Shown here one piece after another: positions 6,990-62,637 of a DNA stretch of 64,000 nt. Positions within the stretch are counted from its first letter, which is position 1. Each line of letters opens with the position of its first letter. A program made the translations under genes and the position numbers. The stretch is from assembly GCA_041917855.1 (NCBI GenBank), contig JAYRWT010000044.1, positions 21,563 to 85,562 on the forward strand, in the 5' to 3' direction. The notes below the pieces were generated by a model. That model saw nothing but the letters and a program-made list of their open reading frames with translations, ran no database searches and had not been told where the DNA came from. The stretch is from Patescibacteria group bacterium (GTDB lineage Bacteria > Patescibacteriota > UBA1384 > CAILIB01).

Positions 6990-9425
6990 CTAGCGAATTA
7001 TTGTGCTTTCGCTGGCAAAAAATCGATGCTTGGCAATTTCAACAACACCTAGGTAGAGGGCAACTATACTGGCAATAGTAAGAAGGGCTGGGAAAGGTAG
7101 GGGGGTAAATCCAAGAAGGGAGCCAATAGGGAGCACGGTAATTAACCAGCTAACTCCTACTGCAGCAGATGCTCCTATAAGCAGGGTCAGACTAGGGCTG
7201 CTCTGTAGGAAGGGGATCTTTTTCGTGCGAATAATGTATACGACCAGCGTTTGGGTTGCTAACGACTCCAAAAACCATCCAGTTTGAAAGCTGCCATTTA
7301 GTAGGTTAAAGCCCCAATACAGCACACCAAAGGTCATAAAATCGAATACTGAACTGATTGGACCAAATACTAGCATAAAGCGCTTAATCTCTTGTATGTG
7401 CAGGCGGCGCGGCTTGAGAATCTCTTCTTCGTCTACATTGTCGCTGGGCAGGGCAAACTGCGAGGCCTCGTAGAGTAGATTATTTAATAGAACTTGTGTT
7501 GGTAGCATGGGGAGAAAGGGAAGGATGACGGAAGCGCCGGCCATGGAAAATACATTGCCGTAGTTAGAGGCAAGTACCATGCGCAGGTATTTGAGGGTAT
7601 TCACAAATGTTTTACGTCCCTCGCGTACGCCCCCTACGAGATCCTGCAAGCTTTTGTGCAGCAAAATAAGGTCGGCTGAATCTTTGGCAATATCGGTGGC
7701 GTTGTTAACAGAGATCCCCACATCTGCGGCGCGTAGTGAAGGGGCGTCGTTAATACCATCACCCATGTACCCAACTACGTTACCTGCCTTTTGTAGGGTT
7801 TGGATAATCCTGAGCTTCTGCTCTGGATTAACTCTTGCAAAAATACTTATCTCTCGTACAGCCTTCTCTAGTTGCTGGGGTGAGAGCGTATCTAGTTGGT
7901 CACCAGTAACTACACCTGTAACGGGTAGCGAGATATCTTGAGCAATACGTTGAGTAACGAGCTCGTTATCTCCAGTAATAATCTTGATTGCAATACCTAA
8001 GCGCTGCATTTCAGCCAAGGTGGGTGCAGCGGTTAGCTTGGCAGGATCAAGAAAGGCGACAAACCCCTGAAAACTCATGTCCTTTTCTTCAGTTGTTTCG
8101 TAACTTGCTTTACGCTTTACCACCCGAGAAGCTATGGCGAGCACCCTAAACCCGTCTCGGCTCAGCTGCTGGTAGGTTTTTTTAGCAACGGCTCGGGTGG
8201 CGGCATCGTCAAACTCACTACATACTCGCATTACTCCTTCAGGCGAGCCCTTGGCAATTAATAAAATCTTTCCTGCGTGCTCAACAACAACTGACTCTCG
8301 TCGTCGTTCAAAGTCAAAGGGCAGCTCATCAATCTTTTTGTACGATTTACTGTCCAAATGCCTAAAGTCGCGGATGGCATCATCGAGGGGATTCTTAAAG
8401 CCGGTAGTGAGTACACTATTTAAATAGGCATAGAGTAGTGTTGCATCGCAGGTTTTCCCAGCTCCATCTACGTATTTAACTAGTGAAATGTGATCTTCAG
8501 TTAATGTGCCTGTTTTATCTGTGCAGAGCACATTCATGCTACCGAAATTTTGTAGCGAGGAAAGTTTCTTGACGATTACGCCATGCTTGGCCATGGCTAA
8601 TGAACCCTTAGTTAGGTTAAGGGTTATGATCATGGGTAGTAGCTCGGGGGTGATACCTACGGCAAGTGCAATGGCAAAGAGTAGAGAGGTTAGCGCACTA
8701 CCTTTCAGAATGGTATTAACCGCAAAAACAACTATCACCAAAATGAGGGCTACTCGCAGTATTAGAAAGCTAAAGTCACGTATCTCACGATCAAATTCAG
8801 TGAGTCCAACCTTAGTATTAAGCGCAACAACCACCTTACTAAACTGCGTGGCCGCCCCTGTTTTTGTCACCTGCATAATTCCCTCACCACTGGATATGCT
8901 GCTACCCATGTAGAGTTCGCTGCCAACATTTTTTGCTTGTGGATAGGCCTCGCCGGTGAGTGAGGACTCGTTGCTAAATAAGTGTGTGGCGGCCACCACG
9001 TTGCCATCGGCGGGAACAATGTCTCCAGCTGAAAGAATCACAATGTCGCCAGGAACAAGCGCGCTCACTGGAATATTGCTCTGCTCTGCATCGCGTATAA
9101 CGGTGACGGTAATCCTTACACGCTTCTTTAATTCCTGCGCGGCTTTATCTGACTTATAGCTATTTACTGCGTCAAAAATGCTGCTCGCCAAAACTATGAG
9201 AATAATGATGGCTGAGCTTAGGGTTTCGCCAAAGTAGGCGGAGAGAGCTGCTGCTACTAGCAAAATTATGCCGAGCGGGTTCTTAAAGGAAGTTACTAAA
9301 AAAGAAAGAAGTGTATGATTCTTACGAATCTCAATTTCATTTGGTCCGTACTGGAGCGTGAGGCGAGTAATATCCTTACTGCTCAATCCAGTTTTGAACG
9401 GCGGTGTATGTAGTGGTGCCGGCAT
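6990..9425 (-). CDS. P-type cation-transporting ATPase, MgtA-like (Mg2+ importer type)
   Basis: 811 aa; DKTGTLT phosphorylation motif, TGDN, and the MGDGINDAPSLRAADVGISV hinge motif. The N-terminal region resembles MgtA. Confidence 0.85.
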   Translation of the reverse strand: MPAPLHTPPFKTGLSSKDITRLTLQYGPNEIEIRKNHTLLSFLVTSFKNPLGIILLVAAALSAYFGETLSSAIIILIVLASSIFDAVNSYKSDKAAQELKKRVRITVTVIRDAEQSNIPVSALVPGDIVILSAGDIVPADGNVVAATHLFSNESSLTGEAYPQAKNVGSELYMGSSISSGEGIMQVTKTGAATQFSKVVVALNTKVGLTEFDREIRDFSFLILRVALILVIVVFAVNTILKGSALTSLLFAIALAVGITPELLPMIITLNLTKGSLAMAKHGVIVKKLSSLQNFGSMNVLCTDKTGTLTEDHISLVKYVDGAGKTCDATLLYAYLNSVLTTGFKNPLDDAIRDFRHLDSKSYKKIDELPFDFERRRESVVVEHAGKILLIAKGSPEGVMRVCSEFDDAATRAVAKKTYQQLSRDGFRVLAIASRVVKRKASYETTEEKDMSFQGFVAFLDPAKLTAAPTLAEMQRLGIAIKIITGDNELVTQRIAQDISLPVTGVVTGDQLDTLSPQQLEKAVREISIFARVNPEQKLRIIQTLQKAGNVVGYMGDGINDAPSLRAADVGISVNNATDIAKDSADLILLHKSLQDLVGGVREGRKTFVNTLKYLRMVLASNYGNVFSMAGASVILPFLPMLPTQVLLNNLLYEASQFALPSDNVDEEEILKPRRLHIQEIKRFMLVFGPISSVFDFMTFGVLYWGFNLLNGSFQTGWFLESLATQTLVVYIIRTKKIPFLQSSPSLTLLIGASAAVGVSWLITVLPIGSLLGFTPLPFPALLTIASIVALYLGVVEIAKHRFFASESTIIR

Positions 9426-14361: not shown

Positions 14362-15126
14362 ATGCAAAGCCAAAAAACCTTTAGCACCCTTAACCGATAC
14401 AATCTTGTAGCGGCGCTCCTGCACGCTGTGCAGGGTATTGCCGTGATTATTCTTAGTCGAGATTTTTCTCTGCCGATAAGTACTAGTTTCTTAAAGTTTG
14501 ATACAGCTAGCCAGACCTTACTTCCGTCTAGCGATACTGTGTTTAACCTTTCGCTGCCAGCACTACTAGCAGGTTTCTTCTTTCTCTCCGCTCTCTTTCA
14601 CCTAATTATTGCTACGTTCTACCGCAAAACCTATGAGACTAACCTAGAGGTTGGCCTCAATAAGGCGCGTTGGCATGAGTACTCTATTTCGGCCAGCGTA
14701 ATGATGGTGGCTATCTCACTCTTGGTAGGTATTTACGATCTTGGTAGCTTGCTCATGATTTTTGGACTCACTTGGGGAATGAACCTTATGGGCTTAGTCA
14801 TGGAAGTGCACAACCAAACAACCAAGACAACCAGCTGGCTGTCTTACTGGGTTGGCTGTGTGCTCGGGGCTATCCCATGGTTGGTGGTGGCACTCTACCT
14901 GTGGTCAGGCTACGCGAATGGCAGTGCTGCTCCAACCTTTGTATACTGGATTTTTGTTTCAATCTTTGTGTTCTTCAACTGTTTTGCCATCAACATGTGG
15001 CTGCAGTACAAGCAAATTGGTCCCTGGAAGAATTACCTGTACGGCGAGCGTGCGTACATGATCTTAAGTCTGGTTGCAAAAACACTACTAGCCTGGCAGG
15101 TATTTGGCGGAACACTCCGTCCTTAG
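14362..15126 (+). CDS. Heliorhodopsin (7-TM retinal-binding protein, inverted topology family)
   Basis: 254 aa; collinear similarity to heliorhodopsin 48C12 along the whole length (NRYNLVAALLHAVQGIAV; WHEYSISASVMMV with the counterion Glu; FVYWIFVSIFVFFNCFA; GERAYMILSLVAKTLLAWQVFGGTL with the Schiff-base Lys). Confidence 0.85.
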   Translation: MQSQKTFSTLNRYNLVAALLHAVQGIAVIILSRDFSLPISTSFLKFDTASQTLLPSSDTVFNLSLPALLAGFFFLSALFHLIIATFYRKTYETNLEVGLNKARWHEYSISASVMMVAISLLVGIYDLGSLLMIFGLTWGMNLMGLVMEVHNQTTKTTSWLSYWVGCVLGAIPWLVVALYLWSGYANGSAAPTFVYWIFVSIFVFFNCFAINMWLQYKQIGPWKNYLYGERAYMILSLVAKTLLAWQVFGGTLRP

Positions 15127-15146
15127 CAGCTTGCTTACGCCTATAT

Positions 15147-15178
15147 AAAAAGAGGTCGCTTCATCGCGACCTCTTTTG
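15147..15178. terminator. Bidirectional rho-independent terminator between convergent genes
   Basis: AAAAAGAGGTCGC-ttcat-GCGACCTCTTTT, a perfect 9-bp stem flanked by A/T runs on both strands. Confidence 0.7.
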
Positions 15179-15188
15179 CTGTAACCGA

Positions 15189-16100
15189 TTACTGGCAGTA
15201 GTCACTTGTTTTACCTTCGGTACCTGATCCTGGTAGTGCTTTTGCTGTAGTAGCGTCAGGCTCTGGCAGCGCATTCAACCAGCAGGTTCCGTAGTAGCTG
15301 AGCTCGGTAAATTGCCCCACTTTTTTCTGGAAGGTCGTTGAGCGTGAGGCTTGGTTGGCTTGGCGTAAATCGTATACACCAAAGTCAAAGCTGACGTTGC
15401 TGGTAGCACGGAACCCAACTTCTGTAGCTATAGCTGTTCCTTTACTAAAGCTTAAACCACTGGGAAATGGTGTGGTTTGCGACGCATCCTTCTTGGCGGC
15501 TGGTAAGTGCGCATCTACAAGTTTCTGCAGCTCTGGCGTAAGGGTAAGCAGGTGGTCGTAGCGGAGTAGATAGCCGCAAGGGTGAACAAAGTCGAGCATG
15601 GTTTGTACCTCTCCAGCTTCAATGTAGCGCGAGCCTCGCAGAAGTGAGCTATCAAGTGCTAGTGTCACCCCTACAGCGTTGCGTGTACCTGTTTGACTCT
15701 GCCCATCAAAGCGAAAACCGCCGTGAGGTTTGTAGTTACCGCCCCGCGTTTGACCGGGGTATAGAATGGCCGTGGCAAGCTGTATGTTTGTGGGTGTGGC
15801 AAGCCCAAGTGGGGTTGGGCAACTTGGTGCCGATCCTAAAGCCTTCCAGCCCTCACCGCTATACGACCAGGATACTGCCGTACTAGGCTCTGTGGCCTTG
15901 GGACTACTTGCCGCTGTGGCCTTTGTACTGCTCGCCGGCGTTTTGCTGGTTTCGGTGCCGGACTTGTCGGTGGCGGTGTCTGCAGTGTTTTCGGTGCGCG
16001 GGCGCATTGCAGCCGTGGCTCCTAAAATTACGCCAATGATAACTACAGTAGATAATCCAATAATAAGGATTCGACTTGGGTGAGGGGTAGGGTTGGGCAT
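15189..16100 (-). CDS. Hypothetical membrane-anchored secreted protein with Thr/Ala/Ser-rich linker
   Basis: N-terminal signal anchor, low-complexity linker, C-terminal globular domain with Cys residues; no recognisable family. Confidence 0.45.
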   Translation of the reverse strand: MPNPTPHPSRILIIGLSTVVIIGVILGATAAMRPRTENTADTATDKSGTETSKTPASSTKATAASSPKATEPSTAVSWSYSGEGWKALGSAPSCPTPLGLATPTNIQLATAILYPGQTRGGNYKPHGGFRFDGQSQTGTRNAVGVTLALDSSLLRGSRYIEAGEVQTMLDFVHPCGYLLRYDHLLTLTPELQKLVDAHLPAAKKDASQTTPFPSGLSFSKGTAIATEVGFRATSNVSFDFGVYDLRQANQASRSTTFQKKVGQFTELSYYGTCWLNALPEPDATTAKALPGSGTEGKTSDYCQ

Positions 16101-16174
16101 ATGAGTGCTGCAGGGTTATATGTGTGCCTACAGTATACAGGGCTTTCTTCTGATAACACTAGCCATACCCCCAG

Positions 16175-16203
16175 ACATAAAAAAGAGAGGTCGCGATTAC
16201 GCG
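16175..16203 (-). terminator. Rho-independent terminator of the minus-strand Gmk-like gene
   Basis: AGAGGTCGCG-att-CGCGACCTCT, a perfect 10-bp stem, followed by a T-run on the minus strand. Shares the AGAGGTCGC core with the 15147-15178 hairpin. Confidence 0.7.
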
Positions 16204-16233
16204 ACCTCTTTCAGTTTTTGCTTGCTACCTGAT

Positions 16234-17046
16234 CTAGGCAATTGATTCACGCACCACAGATACAATGCGCTCAATTGTGTCGTTGACCAAGTAGCAGGTT
16301 GCAATGCTGCCATCATAGGTTGCGCCAAACTCGTTTACCTGGCGCATGCCAAGGGTAGAGTCGTAGGCTGCTAAGCTTTCCTGTTCACCACTGTCCTCCA
16401 TGCGTTTTTGTAGACGCTCAAGCAATGTGTCGAACACAGGATCAGGTGGTAGCAAGTAGATGAGGGCAGCTCCTGTGGTTTCTTGATCTAGGCCAGCAAC
16501 AAGCTGGGCAACTACCTCAGCCGATTCCTCTACAAGACAGAGAGGGCTCTGCAGAGCTGCTTCTAGATGGGCTCTCTGAAAGCCATACCAGCCGCGCCCC
16601 TCGCGGAACTTTTTGGTTACAAGTTCTCCGTTTGCCTCTAGCTGTTTGTAGACTTCTTCAGTTACAAAGTGGTAGTCCACGCCGTCTGTCTCGTTTTCAC
16701 GAGGTTTGCGGGTTGTGGTGTTCAAGAGACGAGTCGCGCCGGTTTCGTTCAAGACTGCCTGAATAAAGGTTCCCTTGCCAACAGCGCCAGGGCCGTTGAT
16801 GGCCAGTACGCGCCGGGGTTTAGCCAGTGCGTCCGTAAGGTTGGATCGCGTTGCCGCCTCTAGGGTTGCAACAACCGATTCGTTCGGGACAGTATCCTGC
16901 CCCTGCCAGTAGTTGAGTGCGCTGCTGAGTGCATCCCGCCACCCTTGGCGCATGGTCGCGGTGAACTGCTGTAACTCACGCTGTTGAGTGGGGGAAGGTG
17001 TTTCTGCCATGGGGTTAGTTTTAGCAAAAATATGCAATTTTGACAA
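16234..17046 (-). CDS. Guanylate kinase-like P-loop nucleoside monophosphate kinase with ~70-aa N-terminal extension
   Basis: P-loop INGPGAVGKGT and the Gmk hallmark TTTRKPRENETDGVDYHFVTEEVY. Confidence 0.6.
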   Translation of the reverse strand: MSKLHIFAKTNPMAETPSPTQQRELQQFTATMRQGWRDALSSALNYWQGQDTVPNESVVATLEAATRSNLTDALAKPRRVLAINGPGAVGKGTFIQAVLNETGATRLLNTTTRKPRENETDGVDYHFVTEEVYKQLEANGELVTKKFREGRGWYGFQRAHLEAALQSPLCLVEESAEVVAQLVAGLDQETTGAALIYLLPPDPVFDTLLERLQKRMEDSGEQESLAAYDSTLGMRQVNEFGATYDGSIATCYLVNDTIERIVSVVRESIA

Positions 17047-17207
17047 TGAATATGATAGAGCCAGCTGCTAGCTGAGGCTCGTGTGTACACATTTATTTCA
17101 CACTACTAAGAGCGCGCTGCATAGACAAAAACCAAGATTTCCCGTATACATATAAAGCTAAATTCTTACGGCAACTTCTGCGCGAGAGTTAGCTCTGGAG
17201 AAAGATA

Positions 17208-17828
17208 TTGACACAACGAGGTATTGGAATCGTCCTCATGGGCCCCCCGGGCTCAGGCAAGGGCACACTTGGTGAGCGACTGCTCGCCACCGACTGGGGA
17301 AGAACGAAACTTAAACGAGTAGTCTCCCACACTGACCGACCAAGGCGAGAAAGTGATCACGAAGGGCAATACGAGTTCATCACTAAAGAAGAGATGGATG
17401 CAGTCTTTGCCGAGAGTGGCTGGGCAACACACGGTGAAATGAATGGTATTCGCTATGTGTACCGGCGCAGCAGCATCTTGAGTATTGTGGAAGCGGGCGA
17501 GGTGCCCCTACTCGATATTCGCACGCAGACACTAGCACGGCTAGTGACGAACGTGCCTGAGCTTGATTTTGCTGCTATGCTGGTTCACCCTGGCAATGTG
17601 CAAGACCTGCTTAACAGGATCATCGGCCGCGATGGCGACTCGCCATCAAGTCGGGACCGTGCCGCTCTTGCGGTAGATGAGTATGCCTGTGCTCGTACAC
17701 TGCTGCGGCAGCGCCCAGGCCTCTACACTACCATCTATAACCGAGATGGCGAGCAAGAAGCAGCCTTTGGCGCCATGCTTACTTTCTTGGGCAAGTATGT
17801 GCCTGAACTCATTGCGGTTCCGGCGTAA
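17208..17828 (+). CDS. Guanylate kinase-like P-loop kinase (paralog, divergently transcribed)
   Basis: P-loop LMGPPGSGKGT and TDRPRRESDHEGQYEFITKEEM, i.e. a Gmk-like TTRPxR...DGxDYxFV pattern with TDR in place of TTR. Confidence 0.55.
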   Translation: MTQRGIGIVLMGPPGSGKGTLGERLLATDWGRTKLKRVVSHTDRPRRESDHEGQYEFITKEEMDAVFAESGWATHGEMNGIRYVYRRSSILSIVEAGEVPLLDIRTQTLARLVTNVPELDFAAMLVHPGNVQDLLNRIIGRDGDSPSSRDRAALAVDEYACARTLLRQRPGLYTTIYNRDGEQEAAFGAMLTFLGKYVPELIAVPA

Positions 17829-17968
17829 TCGATCGTTTGGTCATTCTGATTGGGGCGCGCGTAGGCGTGCCCCGTTTTTTATTTCCTTTAGTCAGCGTAG
17901 CGCCAATCGTAGTTTGTAGTTGGTCAGAACTCCATCGTATACTAGTGGTATCACACTTAACATGTACT

Positions 17969-19381
17969 ATGGGCACACATAAGGTATCTCCTGTTCTTTG
18001 GATTGGTTTGATCGTAGTTTTGCTTGGTGGGGGTGTGGCGGTATATAGCCAGCGTAATACAAAAGAAGAGCAGGGCAAGAATCAAGCTGTTGATAAAAAA
18101 GAAGATCAGGGTAAAACTACAGGTGCGCTCACACCTGCAAAATCGAATGGGTACACAGGCTTAGCTGGTGACGTTATTAGCAGTAGCGCGTTCGAGTGTC
18201 AGCCGCGTAGCGAGCACGAGTGGTATCGTACCGATCGTACTTTTGCAGTAGATCCTAAGAATCCACAGGTGATGTACACCAGTGTGGAGTATAAGGGTGT
18301 GTACAAATCTGTCGATGGCGGTACAACCTGGAAGTCTGCCAGCAAGGGGATTCGCGCCTACAGTCGCCAGGATGACAAAACAAAGCCCTGCTATAGCGAG
18401 TATCCGGTGATCAAGATTAACCCCAAGGACAGCAATCACATCGTGATCGCTATCAGTAGTGGCGGCGGTGGCCATCTACACCCAACTAACATGAACCAGC
18501 AAGTGGGCGGTGTCTACCAGAGCTTTAACGCAGGTGAAAGTTGGGAACTGATGATTGATAACACCATGAACACCTATGTTACTGACGTGGTATTTGACGC
18601 CGATGGCGCGGTATACTACGGCACAGCTTCTAACCCAGGATCGTGGACCGAGGCTGACCAGAACCAGCTCTTCGTCAGCAAGGGGCTTATCTATAAAACC
18701 AGCGACAAGGGGAACACCTGGACTGAGCTGCCAACCGGCATTGGCAGCCGAACCTCGGCGACTAAGGTGTTCGTCAACCCGGCAAATACCCAGCAGATTA
18801 TGGCTCCGACCTACTCGGCAGTGCGACAATCGGCTGATGGCACGGGGACGGGTATCAGCACGGGTAAAGATACAAACGTAGCTCAGCTGGGAATTTTAAG
18901 CTCAAGTGATGCTGGTAAAACCTGGAAGCGCATTGCGCTGCCTGGAAACGTGCCGGTGCTGAGTGCCGCAGTTTCGTCAGCCAAGTTTGCTAACCAGATC
19001 TACATTAGTGCAACAACCGACGAGTCCTTTGTTACCTTTGACGCAGGCGCTACTTTTACCAAAACCAAGTACCTGAACACCGTCGCCTACGACCCATTCG
19101 ACGCGACTGGCAAGCACCTGCTAGCCTACAGTATGCAGTCCATGAACGGGCCAGGGCTAAATTTACACGAGAGCCTTGACGGTGGGCTTACCTGGAAAGC
19201 AAAAGGCTCGCTGCCACGCGAGATTACTGACCTGAACGATAAAAAGACCCGCGTCAGCAACCTATTCTGGCACCCAACCGACAAGAACACTATCTATATG
19301 AATGGTGCTTCCGGGTACCTATGGGTCAGTACCGACCTAGGTACAACCTGGAAGCGTCTACTTACCTATACTGACTTATAA
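17969..19381 (+). CDS. Secreted BNR/Asp-box repeat protein (sialidase-/Ycf48-like beta-propeller)
   Basis: Start moved to ATG 17969 (MGTHKVSPVLWIGLIVVLLGG signal anchor). Five or more SxDxGxTW Asp-box repeats (SVDGGTTW, SDKGNTW, SSDAGKTW, SLDGGLTW, STDLGTTW). Confidence 0.65.
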   Translation: MGTHKVSPVLWIGLIVVLLGGGVAVYSQRNTKEEQGKNQAVDKKEDQGKTTGALTPAKSNGYTGLAGDVISSSAFECQPRSEHEWYRTDRTFAVDPKNPQVMYTSVEYKGVYKSVDGGTTWKSASKGIRAYSRQDDKTKPCYSEYPVIKINPKDSNHIVIAISSGGGGHLHPTNMNQQVGGVYQSFNAGESWELMIDNTMNTYVTDVVFDADGAVYYGTASNPGSWTEADQNQLFVSKGLIYKTSDKGNTWTELPTGIGSRTSATKVFVNPANTQQIMAPTYSAVRQSADGTGTGISTGKDTNVAQLGILSSSDAGKTWKRIALPGNVPVLSAAVSSAKFANQIYISATTDESFVTFDAGATFTKTKYLNTVAYDPFDATGKHLLAYSMQSMNGPGLNLHESLDGGLTWKAKGSLPREITDLNDKKTRVSNLFWHPTDKNTIYMNGASGYLWVSTDLGTTWKRLLTYTDL

Positions 19382-19382
19382 T

Positions 19383-20165
19383 ATGAAGCCTCACTCTCAC
19401 TCAAAAGTTATTTTAGTTGGTGTTGCAGTTGTGCTGGTCTGTGGCGGCATTGTGGCCTTTACTTCGGGGAGGAAGGATACCAAAACTGGAGGGCAGCAGA
19501 TCGAGCAAGGTACGAGCACAAATACTCAGAGAACTACTGAGCCGAAAGAAGCAGATATTGTACTCAAGAACTTGGGCCTCAGTAGCATTGCGGATAGCAC
19601 GGTGTACACACGCTTTGCCGTGCAGGACTATGCAAGTAATGGCATGAAGGGGCTGTATTTGTTTGGTGATAAGCTACCCGGTAACCGCCTGAATCCTAAC
19701 TTTGAGTTTTCTTCGGTCAAGCAGGACGCGCCGGTGATTGCGGCAATTGACGGCATTGTCGCTTTTATTAAGGAGCAGGCCGAAAGTAAGGATTATGAAG
19801 TATTTCTGCAACCAAAAGATGGTTCAATCTGGACAGTAGGCTATGATCACCTAGTTGGGCTAAAGGTAAAGAGGGGAGACAAAGTAAAGACTGGAGATGT
19901 GCTTGGAACGGCGGCGGTGCAGAACAATGGCCTCTATCGCTTTGAGCTCCAAATCAATAAAGATGTAGCTGGGGTTACAACACACCATTGCCCTGTACTA
20001 TTTTTAGACCCAGCAGTTGCGCCAGGTGTGACAGCTGATCTGTCGGCTACCCAGCAAGCCTGGGAGGCGGTAAAGGGTCAGCAAGATCTGTACAACCCTT
20101 CTACTCAGAGCCCAGTTGGGTGCATAAAGACCACTCTGAGCGTTGCGGAGGCGGAGGGTAGGTAG
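19383..20165 (+). CDS. Hypothetical membrane-anchored secreted protein with possible degenerate LytM (M23-like) domain
   Basis: Signal anchor; GYDHL...VKRGDKVKTGDVLGTAA resembles an M23 peptidase core but lacks the HxH metal ligands. Confidence 0.4.
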   Translation: MKPHSHSKVILVGVAVVLVCGGIVAFTSGRKDTKTGGQQIEQGTSTNTQRTTEPKEADIVLKNLGLSSIADSTVYTRFAVQDYASNGMKGLYLFGDKLPGNRLNPNFEFSSVKQDAPVIAAIDGIVAFIKEQAESKDYEVFLQPKDGSIWTVGYDHLVGLKVKRGDKVKTGDVLGTAAVQNNGLYRFELQINKDVAGVTTHHCPVLFLDPAVAPGVTADLSATQQAWEAVKGQQDLYNPSTQSPVGCIKTTLSVAEAEGR

Positions 20166-54618: not shown

Positions 54619-54921
54619 ATGCCAGTAGCCACCCACATTCCGGGACAAGACGAAGAACTCGACCCAGTAGAGGCCATTGATGAACATGATGATGAATCTG
54701 CAGATGAAGAAAGTATGGGGGTGCACATTACGGACCCTGAGCATCCCGAAGCAGCTCCAGCCGAGGAAGGTCTCGACAAGATAATTGCAGCTATTGAGGT
54801 GCCGGTGGCAGAAGATGGTCATGATGATCTAGCGGCTGTCCCCAAAAAAGCACAGGTTTCAGACGAGCTGATTAAAAGGGAGCTGACCATTGACGATTTA
54901 CAGGATAGCGATCGAATCTAA
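54619..54921 (+). CDS. Hypothetical highly acidic protein
   Basis: 100 aa, rich in Asp/Glu/Pro/Ala; no motifs. Confidence 0.35.
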   Translation: MPVATHIPGQDEELDPVEAIDEHDDESADEESMGVHITDPEHPEAAPAEEGLDKIIAAIEVPVAEDGHDDLAAVPKKAQVSDELIKRELTIDDLQDSDRI

Positions 54922-56293: not shown

Positions 56294-56317
56294 AATCATA
56301 AACCAATGCTGATTAAA

Positions 56318-56349
56318 GGGCTCTAGTACTTGACAAGAGCTCTTTTTTG
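56318..56349 (+). terminator. Rho-independent terminator after cysS
   Basis: GGGCTCT-agtacttgaca-AGAGCTC followed by TTTTTTG. Confidence 0.55.
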
Positions 56350-56802
56350 TTCTATAGTCCTTTCGAATTGATCTTTCCCACATTCAGAACCGTCGAATAA
56401 GTAACAGGCAGCGCTTTTGCATAGTGATCTGGCTGAGAAGTGTGTACCGCAAGGTACGTGGATGACTGGTTCACAGCACTCAACCAGAAGGTTACCTTAG
56501 GCTTCAAGCCATACAACCATCTGTCTCTGTGACCACGCCCGCTTCTTGGCTGGATCACTGGGCACAAGCGTTTTTTATTTCAGAGGGGCAACCCGACGGA
56601 ACTGAACCGATCTGCTCCCAGTCTACTGAAACTTTCCTTGCAGGATTGGTGAAGTAGATCGGTGCGCTCAGTAAGCATCGGAATTTGAAAATGAGGTAGT
56701 ATGATCCGCCCGGACGTACATCTCTACATATATAGATTTTTACCAAGCACCAGGTGGGTGTCGCAAGCATGCGTTATATGCACGATTAGGAGCAAAAAAG
56801 AC

Positions 56803-57921
56803 ATGAAGAAGATCATTCCTCTCGTCGCCCTGGCGCTCGCTCTTGCGGTCGCGCCCATGACCTCTTTCGCCCAAACAACGGGTGGGGGAACCGGTAACGG
56901 CACAGCGACCACCGTGAATAATGGTGGGGCGTCTCGTGCGACCAGTGTTGGGCTCAGCCTCTGGACAGAAGTTCAGAAGTTTAGCCAGGCCGGCCTGGAG
57001 TTGAGCATTAACCTGCGCAACAATCGGTCGGGTCAGCTGGTGACCGGAATCAAGGGCAAGACCCTTGAAATGATTCCTTTTTGGGGAGTCGCTGGCATCG
57101 ATTACACGATCGAGATCGAGATCTTGCCGCAGGCGGCAGGTCTCCGATTCGATCGTAATGGTCGGCCTCTCATGAAAGTGAGGGCTACCGGCGATGACTC
57201 AACTGATCAGCGAATCACGCTGAGCAAGCCTGATGAGAAGGGAAGAGTTGTTGTAAAGATCAACCTGGCTAAGTTCACCGGCGCCGAAATGATCAATTTC
57301 GGGTGCAGGGTGGACATGGCTACAGGAAGAGACTACAGCAAGACTCTCTGTATCACATGGTCAGCTCGCGACCACTACGAAGGGGCGATGGCCCGGATCA
57401 CCATTCCCGTAAAGGGCGTGTGGCCCAAGGACATCCCCCTTAATGACGACAGCGTCGCAGACTACCAAGTCCTCGCCGCGGCCGAGACCGTGACGAATGT
57501 CCCCCAGAACATTGGTGGGATCATTCGTTACGCCAACTCACAAGCCCTGACGGATGCTCTGCGCAGGCTGCACAACCCGCAGCCTGTACAGCAGGATCCG
57601 CCAGTCGTCACGACCCAAACCGTTACTGTCACAGTCGACCAGAAGGGTCGAATTGTTGAGAGTGATTCGGCAAAGTGTCCCTTTGTCGTCTCCACGAAGG
57701 ACGGAGATCTCATCATCAAGGCGTTTAACCCGAGTGAGGTTACAGTCTACTGGAAGCTCCAAGACGGATATAACGTCAACGGAGCTAAGGCAGGCAAAAA
57801 CCTTATCGGTGCCGACCCGCTCGTGATGATGAAAGAGGCCTTGGCCTCCGTAGACATCGAGTGGAAAGACCTGGACGGCAAGGTTCACGTGTACATCGTG
57901 AACCTGGCCTCCGCCAACTGA
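56803..57921 (+). CDS. Hypothetical secreted protein, in a high-GC cassette
   Basis: Start moved to ATG 56803, which has an AGGAGC Shine-Dalgarno; signal peptide MKKIIPLVALALALAVAPMTSFA. Coding GC by eye near 60%, against about 48-50% in the flanks. Confidence 0.55.
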   Translation: MKKIIPLVALALALAVAPMTSFAQTTGGGTGNGTATTVNNGGASRATSVGLSLWTEVQKFSQAGLELSINLRNNRSGQLVTGIKGKTLEMIPFWGVAGIDYTIEIEILPQAAGLRFDRNGRPLMKVRATGDDSTDQRITLSKPDEKGRVVVKINLAKFTGAEMINFGCRVDMATGRDYSKTLCITWSARDHYEGAMARITIPVKGVWPKDIPLNDDSVADYQVLAAAETVTNVPQNIGGIIRYANSQALTDALRRLHNPQPVQQDPPVVTTQTVTVTVDQKGRIVESDSAKCPFVVSTKDGDLIIKAFNPSEVTVYWKLQDGYNVNGAKAGKNLIGADPLVMMKEALASVDIEWKDLDGKVHVYIVNLASAN

Positions 57922-57931
57922 GAGAAAAAGA

Positions 57932-59050
57932 ATGAAGTTTATCGCTTTAATCATCAGTCTGGTCTTGGCCGCTTGCGGCTTTGGTCAGACCCTCGACATC
58001 AAGCCAACGAACTCCGGTTCGGTGGCTACAACCAAGGACACGGTGACCATCTACCGTATGGAAAGAAAGGACGGAGTCGTCCAACAGACCATCAAAGTGA
58101 TGCCCGCCAGCACACCAGAAGAGCGTGCAGCGGTGGTAGCCCAGCGAGGCTTCCGTACAATCAACCTTGCGAAGGTGTCTGCCGAGAAAAAGGCGGCACT
58201 TGCAAGGGCTGAGCTGTCGGAGGCTCAGTTGAATGCTCGGCAGGGGATTGCGGCGGAGTTTCCGCCCGGGGCCTTCTACCAAGCGGACTACAGCGACGTG
58301 GCAATGTTCACCTCACACACTGAGCGGATTACCCAAGGTCACTACGACCCTGATCCTATGGTGTGGAAAGGTGTAGAACGTGTTCGGCTTCCTCACGAGG
58401 CCCAACCGCTGCTCGGGTGGATGGTCTTCAAGAAGCGGTCAGGAATCAAGTACTACCGGTTTGGTTACGTTGACGAAAATGAAGACGTAGTTGGCCTGAG
58501 TACTCCTGATCCGGCGACCGGAAAGTCGAAACCATTGTTCTACACTGAGGTTTGGAGCCACCCCCAAGCGGGAGGAAAAACCACCGAGGCGTACCTGAAC
58601 TTTGGTTTCGCCACCAATGCCACACGCTGCAAAAACCACTTCCCAACAGTCACGCTCAGCAGCTCCGCCTTCATGGTGGAGCGACCGACCTTGACCAAGC
58701 AAGTGGATCGCTACCGAGAGGTGGTGCGCACACTTACTACTACGGTCACCACCACAGTGGAGAAGACCGTCAGGGTGAACGTGCCGCAGGTGCCTAACAT
58801 GGGTGGAGGGATATTCATCGCCTTCAACGGCTATAGCCAGGTCAATGACAGTCAGCAGATCCGGACGGAGATGATCACTATGGATCTCTTCTTCTTTAGC
58901 GCAGGCTGCCGTCGTCTGCCCAAAACTGTCTGTGATGACGGTTGGGCCATTGACTGGGACAACCTTCCAGGCAGCTTTGGCGATACTGGTCCCAACCCGT
59001 GGTTGGGCGGGGACACCGAATGGGGTCCACCACCTCCTCGGGGAGGCTAG
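57932..59050 (+). CDS. Hypothetical lipoprotein, in the same high-GC cassette
   Basis: Lipobox LVLAAC|G after the MKFIALIISLV signal; Gly/Pro/Trp-rich C-terminus. Confidence 0.55.
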   Translation: MKFIALIISLVLAACGFGQTLDIKPTNSGSVATTKDTVTIYRMERKDGVVQQTIKVMPASTPEERAAVVAQRGFRTINLAKVSAEKKAALARAELSEAQLNARQGIAAEFPPGAFYQADYSDVAMFTSHTERITQGHYDPDPMVWKGVERVRLPHEAQPLLGWMVFKKRSGIKYYRFGYVDENEDVVGLSTPDPATGKSKPLFYTEVWSHPQAGGKTTEAYLNFGFATNATRCKNHFPTVTLSSSAFMVERPTLTKQVDRYREVVRTLTTTVTTTVEKTVRVNVPQVPNMGGGIFIAFNGYSQVNDSQQIRTEMITMDLFFFSAGCRRLPKTVCDDGWAIDWDNLPGSFGDTGPNPWLGGDTEWGPPPPRGG

Positions 59051-59091
59051 TCCAAAAAGCGGTTAACTCACCGCGCCCAAACGAGAAATTC

Positions 59092-59130
59092 TCAGGCCTA
59101 CCTTGCCAACGCGAGGGGGCCTGATTTTTT
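59092..59130 (+). terminator. Possible terminator
   Basis: TCAGGCC...GGCCTGA stem with a long loop, followed by TTTTTTATT. Confidence 0.35.
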
Positions 59131-59332
59131 ATTGCAAAAAGTTCATGTCAATTTCACATATAACCTGCTACCAGAGCCTTTTTCTATTGACAAATCTGTA
59201 AAAAAATGGTAAATAGAAATGTTAACAGTGTTACGGGTAGTCAGTCGTGAGACTGCCTCACCACCGCTTAACGAATACCCGCTCCTATAGCTAAAAAGGA
59301 GAAGGTACAGTTTAATCGTAACGTACACACAT

Positions 59333-61276
59333 ATGCTATCGCTTTTCACAAAGCTAGCGCGTGCTGCTAAAAAGCTACTTCCGGTAGCTGTACTCGGTCT
59401 TGCTGCGTCTGCTGGTGTCCTCACTGCAGTTGCTGACGGTCCAGAGTTCAACAACGGAGCGCTTGATCCCGCAACACTGCGCGGTGTAATCGCTGGGGAG
59501 AGTGCAAACAACCTCTCTACCACGGTTAACGCCACTGTAGGTCAGACGGTAAACCTAGTTATCTGGGTTCACAACAACCGCCCTGATACTACTGCTATCA
59601 ACACTCGGGCTAAGGTAGCCCTCCCGAGTACCATCGGCACTACCCACCAGGCAACTGGGCGAGTAAGCGCTGATAACGCAAGTCCTGCGAATGGTCTCAC
59701 CACTATCAACGTAGGCACCGAGAGTAAGCTCTCGTATGTGCCAAACTCCGCGCGTCTGTACAAGGCAGTTCCTAACGGAAACCAACTTGTCATGACCGAA
59801 GTTTCTTGGCCACAGGGTACAAATGGTAACGATGTAGTTGGTCCTAATGGTGTTAACCTAGGCAACATCAACGGTTGTTACCAGTACACACAGGCAGTTC
59901 TTATTCAGGTGCGTGTCGATGGAACCACTCCACAGATTACCGCCGAAAAGAAAGTTGCCAAGAGTGATGGTACAGGTGAAGCAGACACTATTGCTGCTAA
60001 CCCCAATGACCGCGTTCGTTTCCGCATTTACGTGCGAAACACTGGTACCGGAACAGGTACCAACACTACTGTTGTAGATACCCTCGACGCTAAGTTGAGC
60101 TATGTCGCCGGTAGTTCATGGATTCGCTACAAAGAAAACGGTGTAGATAAGGATTACAACTTCAACGATGCTGGTTCAGACATCGCGTTTGAAACCCTCG
60201 CTGATGGTAAGACCAAGATTACGTGGAAGTGGCGCGATATGGCTCCAGCTGCCTCGTCTTCGTTCTACCTGTACTTTAACGCTCGCCTCGCTGACACTAA
60301 CGCCTTCCCAATTGGTGACACAACTATCCCTAACACTGCGAACGCATGTTTCGGCACCCTGTGTACAACCACCAATCAGGTAACAGTTACTGTTCACCGC
60401 GATGTTGACCCAGTTGTAAGCTTCACCCTTGCAAAGGCTGCAGCTAACCTTGGTTCAAGCGAGTGGAAAGAAATTGTTCCCCTAAACGCTGTTCCTGGTG
60501 AGACCATCGCTTTCCGCCTGGTTCTTACCAACACCGGTAACACTACCGCTACCAACGTTACCCTTAAGGATATCCTACCTAACGGGCTGACTTTCGTTCC
60601 TGGTTACACGTATCTGTATAACAAGGACACAGGTAGCAACGGTTCTCAGATTACCAACGACACCGTTCTGGTGAACAATGGGTACGTATTCGCCTCTGTG
60701 GCAACTGGTACCCTCAACCAACAGATTATCGTGTTCCGCGCTAAGGTTGCGGACACCGTCTGTGGCAGCATTATCAATACTGCAAAAGTGTTCTGGAATA
60801 ACGCCGAACGCGCTCAAGACACCGCTGAAGTTATTGCTAACTGCCAGCCAGGTCTGAACATTGTAAAGCAGGTAAAGGACAACACTACCAGTGCATACTT
60901 GAAGGAAATCTTCAATGTACGTGAGAGTGAAGTACTAACCTTCCGTGTTGTGGTAAGTAACACCGGTAACACCACACTGAACAACGTAGTTGCTCGCGAT
61001 GTGTTGCCAGCTGGTCTCAGCTTTGTACCGGGTAGCCTGACCATTGACGGTCAGCGTTACAACGACACTGATGCCGCTAAGTTCTTCAACGCTGGTCTCA
61101 TTTTGACCAACCTGACTCAGAACATGAGCAAGACCATCATTTACCAGGTACGCGTTCCTGATTGTCCAAACGACGATCTGCGTCTCGTGAACACCGCGTT
61201 CGCCAAGGCTACTGGTATTGCCGAAAAGAACGACACTGCGATTGTTAACGTTAAAGTCCGTATCCCTGGCTTTTAA
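59333..61276 (+). CDS. Large secreted surface protein with DUF11-like (CARDB/conserved repeat) beta-sandwich repeats
   Basis: Signal peptide; repeated ...TNTGNTTATNVTLKDILPNGLTFVPG... and ...SNTGNTTLNNVVARDVLPAGLSFVPG... modules; no C-terminal sorting signal. Confidence 0.6.
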   Translation: MLSLFTKLARAAKKLLPVAVLGLAASAGVLTAVADGPEFNNGALDPATLRGVIAGESANNLSTTVNATVGQTVNLVIWVHNNRPDTTAINTRAKVALPSTIGTTHQATGRVSADNASPANGLTTINVGTESKLSYVPNSARLYKAVPNGNQLVMTEVSWPQGTNGNDVVGPNGVNLGNINGCYQYTQAVLIQVRVDGTTPQITAEKKVAKSDGTGEADTIAANPNDRVRFRIYVRNTGTGTGTNTTVVDTLDAKLSYVAGSSWIRYKENGVDKDYNFNDAGSDIAFETLADGKTKITWKWRDMAPAASSSFYLYFNARLADTNAFPIGDTTIPNTANACFGTLCTTTNQVTVTVHRDVDPVVSFTLAKAAANLGSSEWKEIVPLNAVPGETIAFRLVLTNTGNTTATNVTLKDILPNGLTFVPGYTYLYNKDTGSNGSQITNDTVLVNNGYVFASVATGTLNQQIIVFRAKVADTVCGSIINTAKVFWNNAERAQDTAEVIANCQPGLNIVKQVKDNTTSAYLKEIFNVRESEVLTFRVVVSNTGNTTLNNVVARDVLPAGLSFVPGSLTIDGQRYNDTDAAKFFNAGLILTNLTQNMSKTIIYQVRVPDCPNDDLRLVNTAFAKATGIAEKNDTAIVNVKVRIPGF

Positions 61277-61362
61277 GCCTGGGGTACTGGACAACGTTAG
61301 AAAAACGTGCTATAGTAGCGCGAAATCGCAAGTACAGCACGTATTAACCCTAACGCAACCGT

Positions 61363-62637
61363 ATGATCAATCGTAGCAACACAATCCGAAACATTCTCGG
61401 TGTGTTGGCCATTGCCTCACTGCTGGGTGGAGTAACCTCCTCTGCTCTTGCCGCTGAGCGCGCTCGTTTCAATGACCTTAGTGGTGACCTTGAAATGCTG
61501 CGTGGCCGTAATATTACCAAGAATGGTCCGGTAACCAAAGTTGGTTCAGATCTTATCGATCCTGTATCCGACGTAGAGAATAATGACCTGGTAGATGTGT
61601 GGTTGTACTACCACAACACCAACCCGAGTGCAGTAGCTGAGAATGTTCGCCTAAGGGTAAACCTTCCTACTACCGCCTCGTATAGCCACAAGATTACAGG
61701 ATCGATTTCTGCAGATAACGCAGACACTGTAACCGGTACCGTGGTGAACGGTGTAGAAAAAGGTCAGCCAGGCATGACCATTAACACGGTCAAACTATCT
61801 AAGATCAATTACGTTCCAGGTTCCTTCAAGTGGTACCCGAACGTAACCAGTCTAGGTATTACCAATTCAGCAGCCCTCCCAGGTGGTCAGAACGGTGACA
61901 CGCTTGTTTCAGGTGGTATCACCATCGGCGATCTGAACGGTTGTTTCCAGTACTCTGGTTTCGTAAAGGTTACCGTTAAGGTAATCGACGAGCCGGTACA
62001 GGAAGATAAGGCCATCCTTTCGGTTTCTAAGGACGTTCGTCTCGATCAGAGCGGTACGGTCTTTACCGAAGAGAACCGTATCAAACCAGGTGAGCAGGTT
62101 GTGTACCGTCTAACCGTTCGCAACAGCGATGGTAAGGGTATTGCCAAGAACGTTCGCCTAAAAGATACACTGCCTGCTGGCGTAACCTATGTTGGTCCAA
62201 CATACCTGACCCGCAACGGTAACACTGTACAGCTTCCAGATGGAATCACCTCTGCTGAAGGTATTGTCATCTTGAGTGATCTCCAGCCACTGGAAACGGT
62301 CACCGTAACCTTTAAAGCTAAGTCTGCTACTACCTTTGTTAACGACTCCTGTGTTGTGAACACCGTTCGCGTCTCAGGTCAGAACGTGGCAAACAACCCA
62401 GCAGATGATACTGCCAAGACGTGTTTCGATGTGCCGCCTACTCCTACTCCGACCCCAACCCCTACACCAACTCCAACTACTCCTCCGGTGAACCCACCGC
62501 ATGAGCTGCCAAAGACTGGTGCCGAGGTTAACCTGCTTGCAGGTCTTGGTCTCGTAGGTGCCGCCGGTACAACTGGCCGCTACCTCCAGCTTAAGCGCAA
62601 GCTGAAGAAGAGTGCTCGTTCGCTCGACATCATCTAA
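61363..62637 (+). CDS. LPXTG cell-wall-anchored surface protein, paralog of the upstream gene (DUF11-like domain, PT-repeat stalk)
   Basis: Signal peptide; the N-terminal domain parallels the upstream protein (GDLNGCFQYSGFVKV vs GNINGCYQYTQAV). (PT)n linker. C-terminal LPKTG, a hydrophobic stretch and an RYLQLKRKLKK tail. Confidence 0.7.
   Translation: MINRSNTIRNILGVLAIASLLGGVTSSALAAERARFNDLSGDLEMLRGRNITKNGPVTKVGSDLIDPVSDVENNDLVDVWLYYHNTNPSAVAENVRLRVNLPTTASYSHKITGSISADNADTVTGTVVNGVEKGQPGMTINTVKLSKINYVPGSFKWYPNVTSLGITNSAALPGGQNGDTLVSGGITIGDLNGCFQYSGFVKVTVKVIDEPVQEDKAILSVSKDVRLDQSGTVFTEENRIKPGEQVVYRLTVRNSDGKGIAKNVRLKDTLPAGVTYVGPTYLTRNGNTVQLPDGITSAEGIVILSDLQPLETVTVTFKAKSATTFVNDSCVVNTVRVSGQNVANNPADDTAKTCFDVPPTPTPTPTPTPTPTTPPVNPPHELPKTGAEVNLLAGLGLVGAAGTTGRYLQLKRKLKKSARSLDII
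62437..62486 (+). repeat. Coding Pro-Thr dipeptide tandem repeat (PTPTPTPTPTPTPTTPP stalk)
   Basis: cctactcctactccgaccccaacccctacaccaactccaact. Confidence 0.6.

Follow-up and report, generated by a model that had tools for sequence, protein, structure and literature searches.

One question raised by this locus is how two adjacent genes for secreted proteins, richer in G and C than their surroundings and belonging to no recognisable family, came to stand behind a long structured leader between cysS and the surface-protein genes of a Patescibacteria group bacterium. The genes lie in a stretch of 64,000 nucleotides from contig JAYRWT010000044.1 (assembly GCA_041917855.1), which is called the window here. 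They are referred to as gene 1 (56803-57921) and gene 2 (57932-59050), together the cassette, and are located on the plus strand, as are all features of the leader and of the cassette given below. The original prediction regarded the pair as a recent foreign acquisition. In contrast, the comparison with related genomes points to a slot of ancestral origin, used throughout the clade to express a variable secreted-protein pair, rather than to a recently inserted island, and we put the probability of this reading at roughly 0.6.

Searches among 5.8 billion clustered proteins returned for gene 1 and gene 2 the proteins themselves and one homolog each (67% and 57% identity, respectively). Both homologs are encoded on a 14-kb contig labelled 'Candidatus Berkelbacteria' (L001), where they occupy the equivalent site, with cysS on one side and the genes for CLIPPER/DUF11 surface proteins on the other. 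A CysS-based genome scan found one close relative only. Nine lineages (L088, L089, L090, L093, L094, L095, L096, L098 and L099) were fetched with CysS relatives as anchors, and L097 was reached via an exhaustive HMMER search with the gene 2 profile. The comparison hence comprises 12 lineages, i.e. the window and 11 others, with CysS identities from 82% down to 56%. The order topA, recR, a small open reading frame (ORF), cysS, a gap of 320-520 nt, the secreted-protein genes, CLIPPER and prfB was found in every lineage. The genes in the slot are Pfam-less in every case and encode proteins with signal peptides, normally two of 280-425 amino acids (aa), followed by one or two CLIPPER genes. Three variants were observed: a single fused gene for 704 aa (L094 8691-10805) replaces gene 1 and gene 2 in L094, an epimerase gene (L089 11406-12347) is inserted between cysS and the leader RNA in L089, and a 2'-5' RNA ligase gene (L097 8204-8773) is inserted after gene 2 in L097. 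The slot is filled at the same site in 11 of the 11 other lineages, an occupancy that the original prediction itself had set against a recent foreign origin.

This distribution makes it very improbable that the cassette was recently acquired from a higher-GC donor and inserted between cysS and the surface-protein genes. Such an origin would agree with the strong deviation of the third codon positions within the window (z-scores of 3.6-4.0, see below), the orphan character of both proteins and the horizontal exchange of alleles that is seen at the locus in at least one pair of relatives. However, the allele type of the window is also present in L001, despite synonymous divergence of the housekeeping genes that has reached saturation (proportion of synonymous differences, pS, of 0.63-0.77 for the neighbouring genes), and the leader RNA upstream of the cassette is ancestral. 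Moreover, no integrase or transposase genes were found among the neighbours of the cassette, no tRNA serves as target at this site, the nearest tRNAs being 30 kb off, and only short, chance-level direct repeats flank the two genes.

The content of the slot is exchangeable, as can be seen when L095 and L099 are compared. Identity between these two lineages is 92-99% for the flanking proteins, 95-96% for the CLIPPER proteins and 100% for the leader RNA, while it falls to 21% for gene 1 and 35% for gene 2. The upstream breakpoint lies about 130 nt past the conserved part of the leader RNA and 75-95 nt before the start of gene 1, where it directly follows a conserved hairpin ending in GAUCCCCCUGGGACA; the nucleotides beyond are unalignable. 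Downstream, identity returns about 170 nt before the stop codon of gene 2. Since the flanks are nearly identical, the cassettes unalignable and the breakpoints sharp, the difference between L095 and L099 is a module replacement and not gradual divergence. On the other side, L095 and L098 carry the same allele type (66% and 77% identity, with flanks at 62-87%), as do the window and L001. This swap together with the shared alleles indicates that the slot is ancestral, that its content can be exchanged and that the allele of the window is itself not recent. Hence, the horizontal element of the original prediction holds insofar as the locus is a site of allele exchange among relatives, but not as a recent insertion of this cassette. 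The conserved leader would provide the upstream homology arm for homologous recombination, and the 3' end of gene 2 together with the intergenic region before clip1, the first CLIPPER gene, would provide the downstream arm. The distal leader (56673-56802), of which the part 56745-56802 is conserved with L001 only and which carries the ribosome-binding site AGGAG (56788-56792), seems to be the upstream part of the exchangeable module, as suggested by the end of the L095/L099 homology about 130 nt after the conserved RNA. Silent donor copies of gene 1 or gene 2, as in antigenic variation of the pilin type, were not found within the window.

Surface-polysaccharide loci are known to be exchanged by homologous recombination between conserved flanks. 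The enterobacterial O-antigen cluster is situated between galF and gnd, with a JUMPstart/ops leader and the protein RfaH, and the pneumococcal cps locus is situated between dexB and aliA. The locus described here resembles them in its fixed slot, in content that differs sharply between close relatives with nearly identical flanks, in a composition unlike that of the neighbouring genes and in a conserved non-coding leader element 5' of the variable unit. However, its cargo consists of one or two orphan secreted proteins and not of a biosynthetic cluster, and the cassette is GC-richer instead of AT-richer. Furthermore, the leader is a structured RNA of about 165 nt and not the 39-bp JUMPstart/ops element of the O-antigen cluster, and an RfaH-type partner was not identified.

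The proteins of the slot have diverged widely. BLASTP between lineages gave almost no matches among them. With phmmer and iterated hidden Markov models (HMMs), the gene 2 proteins of the window, L001, L097, L095, L090 and L096 could be linked, and hhalign joined six lineages with 97% probability over 309 collinear columns. A HMMER search with gene 2 in 1.84 billion representative proteins revealed one convincing remote homolog, P0125 (E=2e-9), which is encoded in the same slot in L097. For gene 1, the protein at the same site in L001 is the sole clear homolog. Several points weigh against a uniform, ancestral slot. The links of gene 1 across lineages are weak, with a best hhalign probability of 44%, and the gene 2 proteins of L088, L093 and L089 were left unlinked by hhalign; hence, some slots may hold non-homologous genes. 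In addition, only one clear allele swap is documented, and the lineages compared are related to each other and not phylogenetically independent.

The divergence from L001 also permits an estimate of evolutionary rates. With a nonsynonymous divergence (dN) of 0.28 (gene 1) and 0.36 (gene 2), the two genes evolve 2-4 times faster than their neighbours, for which dN is 0.08-0.14. A similar picture emerged from the comparison with L004, a strain 99.2% identical to the window, in which the cassette shows 14 nonsynonymous and 16 synonymous differences versus 15 and 74 in the other coding sequences (Fisher p=0.0024). Over 16 kb of this comparison, clustered multi-nucleotide changes were seen at three places only, all of them in the cassette. 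These in-frame patches (57303-57312, 58021-58027 and 58297-58304) comprise 7, 4 and 6 differences, respectively, each within 7-10 nt, and resemble complex mutations or the traces of short conversion tracts. Collectively, these patterns would be consistent with surface-exposed factors under diversifying selection, and judged from sequence a role in host interaction, which had also been proposed in the original prediction, is plausible. Orphan, secreted and fast-evolving proteins whose genes are exchanged between near-identical genomes are what one would expect of molecules directed at hosts, phages or competitors. Gene 1 and gene 2 are hence sensible starting points in the search for interaction determinants of a lineage that cannot yet be grown.

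The description of the two proteins given in the original prediction, a signal-peptide protein followed by a lipoprotein, was confirmed. Gene 1 encodes an orphan secreted protein of 372 aa with a Thr/Gly-rich linker. Its preferred start is the ATG at 56803, with the AGGAG motif 10 nt upstream; the ORF list begins at the in-frame ATG 56701. The N-terminus MKKIIPLVALALALAVAPMTSFA/QTT represents by eye a Sec-type signal peptide, in which a basic region and a hydrophobic core precede a cleavage site of the AxA type, and N-termini resembling signal peptides were likewise recognised by eye on all positional counterparts of gene 1. Gene 2 encodes an orphan lipoprotein, likewise of 372 aa, whose N-terminus MKFIALIISLVLAAC, read from the translation, holds the lipobox LAAC (pattern [LVI][ASTVI][GAS]C), which is kept in L001 and is not found in the more distant gene 2 proteins. 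Searches in Pfam, NCBIfam and PDB sequences gave sub-threshold noise only, in line with the proposed lack of a recognisable family. Gene 1 is predicted to be mostly beta, and the AlphaFold2 models, built on alignments of 2-3 sequences, were of low confidence (mean predicted local distance difference test scores of 41.9 for gene 1 and 28.3 for gene 2). Both proteins having the same length, a relation as paralogs was considered and rejected, since BLASTP detected no similarity between them.

The high GC content, on which the proposal of a foreign origin had been based, was verified. Counted from 56803, G or C occupies 37 of the first 60 positions of gene 1, as had been noted by eye. The total GC content is 0.559 for gene 1 and 0.563 for gene 2 compared to a mean of 0.485 for the reference (z about 3), which comprises the other 49 large ORFs of the 64-kb window, complemented by the fetched loci in the comparison between lineages, and thus stands for the surroundings and not for the whole genome. 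At third codon positions (GC3) the difference is even more pronounced: values of 0.676 (z 3.95) and 0.657 (z 3.59) were obtained for gene 1 and gene 2, while the other ORFs have 0.469 +/- 0.052 with a maximum of 0.592. The GC content at first and second positions is ordinary and only GC3 is raised, hence the anomaly is purely synonymous. In a leave-one-out likelihood of synonymous codon usage, gene 1 and gene 2 were not among the 8 lowest-scoring ORFs of the window; the measure that is informative here is GC3.

The rise in GC3 is not restricted to the window. GC3 of the cassette exceeds that of the flanks in 12 of 12 lineages at any background GC3, with cassettes at 0.50-0.73 and flanks at 0.35-0.60. 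Because it recurs in all 12 lineages, the excess represents a property of the locus and not the signature of a donor. In the 10 lineages for which base-specific third positions were tabulated, C is raised and T lowered at third positions of the cassette without exception, and G is also up in most lineages. Codon optimisation usually shifts third positions in this direction, and the unit appears to be driven by a consensus promoter, so that translational selection for C-ending codons in a highly expressed cassette, without any recombination, could produce the same pattern. However, GC3 is not raised in the genes for the ribosomal proteins L11, L1, L10 and L12 of these loci, third-position G increases as well in most lineages, and neither gene 1 nor gene 2 ranked among the 8 lowest ORFs in the leave-one-out codon likelihood; translational selection is therefore ranked weaker than recombination and appears rather improbable to us. 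An association between recombination and GC3 has been reported across bacteria (Lassalle et al. 2015, PMC4450053). Considering this association, the observed exchange and the patchy polymorphism, frequent recombination with GC-biased gene conversion would be the best available explanation for the raised GC3. A shared pool of cassette genes could be an alternative source. In any case, even a pronounced local deviation in GC3 can be inherited stably with the locus, and relatives are needed before a recent transfer is concluded from it.

In contrast to the variable proteins, the leader of about 450 nt upstream of gene 1 (56350-56802), which the original prediction had already pointed out, contains one of the most conserved sequences of the region. 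The segment 56410-56572 is identical to L001 at 159 of 163 positions (97.5%), while the cassette proteins share 57-67% identity and the neighbouring genes have the saturated pS values given above, and it is present in all 12 lineages. The RNAalifold consensus is an unbranched rod of 49 base pairs with the helices P1 (26 bp), P2 (5 bp), P3 (6 bp), P4 (7 bp) and P5 (3 bp). The closing helix P1 includes an invariant, wobble-rich CUGGCUG/CUGGCUG segment; altogether, four G-U wobble pairs of the rod are invariant, and AUGAYUGNU and ACUCAAC are conserved unpaired elements. At the P1/P2 junction an optional expansion hairpin (GUACC-GCAA-GGUAC, 56438-56457 in the window) occurs in four lineages with unrelated sequences, with a GCAA loop in the window and L001, another form in L091/L094 and a UUCG loop in L097, and is missing from the other lineages. 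Among 11 distinct sequences 94.6% of the cells are paired and 25 of the 49 pairs have changed on both sides, compared to 11.6 +/- 2.1 in shuffled controls (0 of 500 as high) and 3-8 in slid controls; these counts were taken from an alignment (A7) that had been fitted to the model, which diminishes their weight. The covariance model R1, built from nine lineages, found the other three at the expected place with 96-169 bits, and it scores 96-180 bits on the plus strand and 23-37 bits on the minus strand. The rod is a structured non-coding RNA under very strong purifying selection that has no match in Rfam 15.

R1 detected no copy near cysS in 79 loci of other phyla, including Uhrbacteria, Saccharibacteria and Parcubacteria. 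Pattern scans with the rod core yielded no viral contig and two JGI metagenome contigs, each of which carries it at this locus. At gathering thresholds, a scan of the whole window with Rfam 15 returned 4 tRNAs only, and at E<=10 the leaders of three lineages gave no relevant match to the rod, including 6S RNA (RF00013), the signal recognition particle (SRP) RNA and EAR; tmRNA was not detected in the window by ARAGORN. A description of the rod was not found in the literature on structured or non-coding RNAs of the candidate phyla radiation (CPR)/Patescibacteria or on 6S RNA, in searches that were not specific for the rod. Several candidate identities were considered and rejected because of missing model match, partner gene or codon periodicity, namely SRP RNA, RNase P, tmRNA, T-box, riboswitch and CsrA sponge as well as C/D-box or K-turn RNA, the template of a retron or diversity-generating retroelement, a TnpB/IscB guide RNA and a small ORF. 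Knowledge of regulatory RNAs in CPR/Patescibacteria is scarce. Since a covariance model that works is available for the rod and its genomic position is clear, it can be tested directly with metatranscriptomes.

A long imperfect palindrome that adjoins an exchangeable cassette could in principle also work as DNA, i.e. as an attC-like recombination or attachment site for cassette exchange. This is extremely improbable, because both the invariance of four G-U wobble pairs and the much lower scores of the minus strand point to a strand-specific RNA, the variable expansion hairpins carry tetraloops typical of RNA, a promoter precedes the rod and a U-tract follows it. In addition, the L095/L099 breakpoint is found about 130 nt beyond the rod and not inside it, and no integrase gene is located nearby.

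Regarding the transcription of the leader, a sigma-70-type promoter TTGACA-17-TATAGT (56330-56358) with 11 of 12 consensus matches is situated behind cysS and has a predicted transcription start at about 56365. In all 10 lineages scanned, and likewise in L098 and L099, the arrangement TTGACA-17-TAnnnN occupies the equivalent position, and in most of these intergenic regions the site upstream of the rod is the only strong promoter-like one. It overlaps a hairpin with T-run after cysS (56317-56348; arms 56317-56324 and 56336-56343), whose loop carries the -35 box; this hairpin is kept in L001 through changes on both arms and was not seen in more distant lineages. The first transcribed part would be a single-stranded A/C-rich lead-in (56365-56409), which is unpaired in the fold and has a UUCGA motif near the predicted 5' end. 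By eye and without statistics, (U)AUUCGA just after the -10 box and the A/C-rich tract recur in other lineages. The rod itself is directly followed by a U-rich tract after P1 (56571-56580, U6 in the window), which together with the GCGC/GCGC base of P1 has the form of an intrinsic terminator as far as the sequence permits such a statement. A U-rich tract after P1 was present in 9 of 10 leaders read; in L089 it is replaced by a separate hairpin and U6 15 nt later.

Conserved hairpins continue past the U-tract. The second leader hairpin (56601-56672, minimum free energy -29.4 kcal/mol) has as its base the paired 8-bp arms of the original prediction, ACCGATCT (56606-56613) and AGATCGGT (56656-56663), which indeed close a hairpin of about 70 nt and have an equivalent with a different interior in L001. 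A third leader hairpin, the one ending in GAUCCCCCUGGGACA, was located at 8700-8790 in both L095 and L099 and at about 8700-8760 in L094 and is conserved across several lineages; in L099 and L094 it is followed by one more helix (GGACAAGUC...GACUUGUCC) common to both leaders, though the proteins of these two lineages are dissimilar. No promoter-like site was recognised in the distal leader 56673-56802 of the window. The possible terminator behind the cassette could be specified as an intrinsic terminator at 59092-59130, predicted to fold from the arms TCAGGCC and GGCCTGA followed by U6, and L001 has a different hairpin with U-run at the same place.

Taking the missing second promoter in most lineages and the hairpins past the U-tract together, a single transcription unit with the rod as cis-acting leader module is the favoured reading of these sequence features. 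The promoter at 56330-56358 would drive a structured leader of about 440 nt with the rod as first module, ending in the U-tract, and the transcript would run on through the later hairpins and both genes and close at 59092-59130. The rod would act in cis on the cassette transcript, with P1 and the U-tract serving as attenuator, as processing site, for example for RNase III, or as antitermination element; alternatively, it could release a stable RNA of about 200 nt. Going one step further, it is tentatively proposed that the rod represents a new class of cis leader, an 'expression dock' behind which surface-protein genes of episymbiotic bacteria with small genomes are swapped by recombination. 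It might control read-through, processing or stability of the cassette RNA and serve as upstream homology arm. Two points weigh against a leader function. A near-perfect P1 of 26 bp leaves little room for a classical switch between alternative structures, and in L089 a canonical terminator and then a TTGACA-17-TATAAA promoter are situated between the RNA and gene 1, an arrangement that fits a stand-alone small RNA (sRNA) better than a leader.

It is hence also possible, though again to be taken with reserve, that the rod is an independent trans-acting sRNA or the RNA of a ribonucleoprotein, for example a functional 6S analogue, which starts at a promoter of its own, is terminated at the U-tract and whose adjacency to the cassette reflects regional synteny only. 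Besides the situation in L089, the consensus promoter and terminator-like end in every leader read would suit such an RNA, as would the extreme conservation independent of the variable downstream genes, the rod being identical in L095 and L099, and the rod shape with a size of about 165-210 nt, which resembles 6S or SRP-type RNAs. However, a recognisable second promoter for the cassette is missing in most lineages, conserved structured elements extend past the U-tract, and in L089 the rod has stayed with the cassette though the epimerase gene separates it from cysS.

The comparison with 6S RNA (ssrS, RF00013), which is co-transcribed with the downstream ygfA in E. coli, is instructive in this regard. 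Both RNAs are rods of about 160-200 nt with a long closing helix, a strong promoter of their own and a position at the 5' end of a protein-coding unit. Shape and size thus fit. However, no 6S, SRP or other Rfam model matched the rod at E<=10, and its closing helix is almost perfect over 26 bp. Furthermore, in the consensus fold the centre appears helical and not as a large single-stranded bubble, which in 6S RNA mimics an open promoter: it consists of P2 and P3, which are supported by covariation with wobble and compensatory changes, a 9-nt bulge and an 8/3 internal loop.

As a putative structured leader RNA of a surface-related operon that is followed by terminator-like signals requiring read-through, the rod also resembles cis-acting RNAs of processive antitermination, namely put of phage HK022 and the EAR element associated with the Bacillus eps operon. 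Its architecture differs from both and there is no similarity in sequence or model; EAR is contained in Rfam and did not match. The near-perfect 26-bp helix in a 5' leader further recalls the RNase III-processed leaders of rnc, pnp and lambda N. A helix of more than two turns, such as P1, has the length that is recognised by RNase III. This likeness rests on helix geometry only, and no counterpart of the conserved wobble-rich segment is known to us.

Some observations concern the neighbouring genes. The two CLIPPER/DUF11 genes clip1 and clip2 (59333-62637) follow the cassette, and a candidate clip1 promoter TTGACA-17-TAAATA (59187-59215) is located downstream of the cassette terminator. Their pS values in comparison with L001 are 0.44-0.48 and thus below the 0.63-0.77 of the housekeeping neighbours; later exchange between lineages or constraint may be responsible for this low divergence. 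The clip2 protein ends in an LPKTG sortase anchor. On the other side of the cassette, the small ORF before cysS (54619-54921) encodes an acidic, Pfam-less protein of 100 aa and overlaps cysS at its start; each lineage examined has a counterpart, 87-137 aa long.

Finally, the window contains a second, milder GC-rich patch at 15000-19400 (GC 0.51-0.53) with two guanylate-kinase-like ORFs at 16234-17046 (minus strand) and 17208-17828 (plus strand) and the gene for a BNR/sortilin-repeat protein at 17837-19381. The 'tRNA-Asn (att)' that ARAGORN reported at 18727-18821 (minus strand) is probably a false positive, because it lies inside the latter ORF and has no Rfam match. A heliorhodopsin gene (PF18761, E=2.5e-95) was identified at 14362-15126 on the plus strand, in what is probably a small genome of the CPR type.

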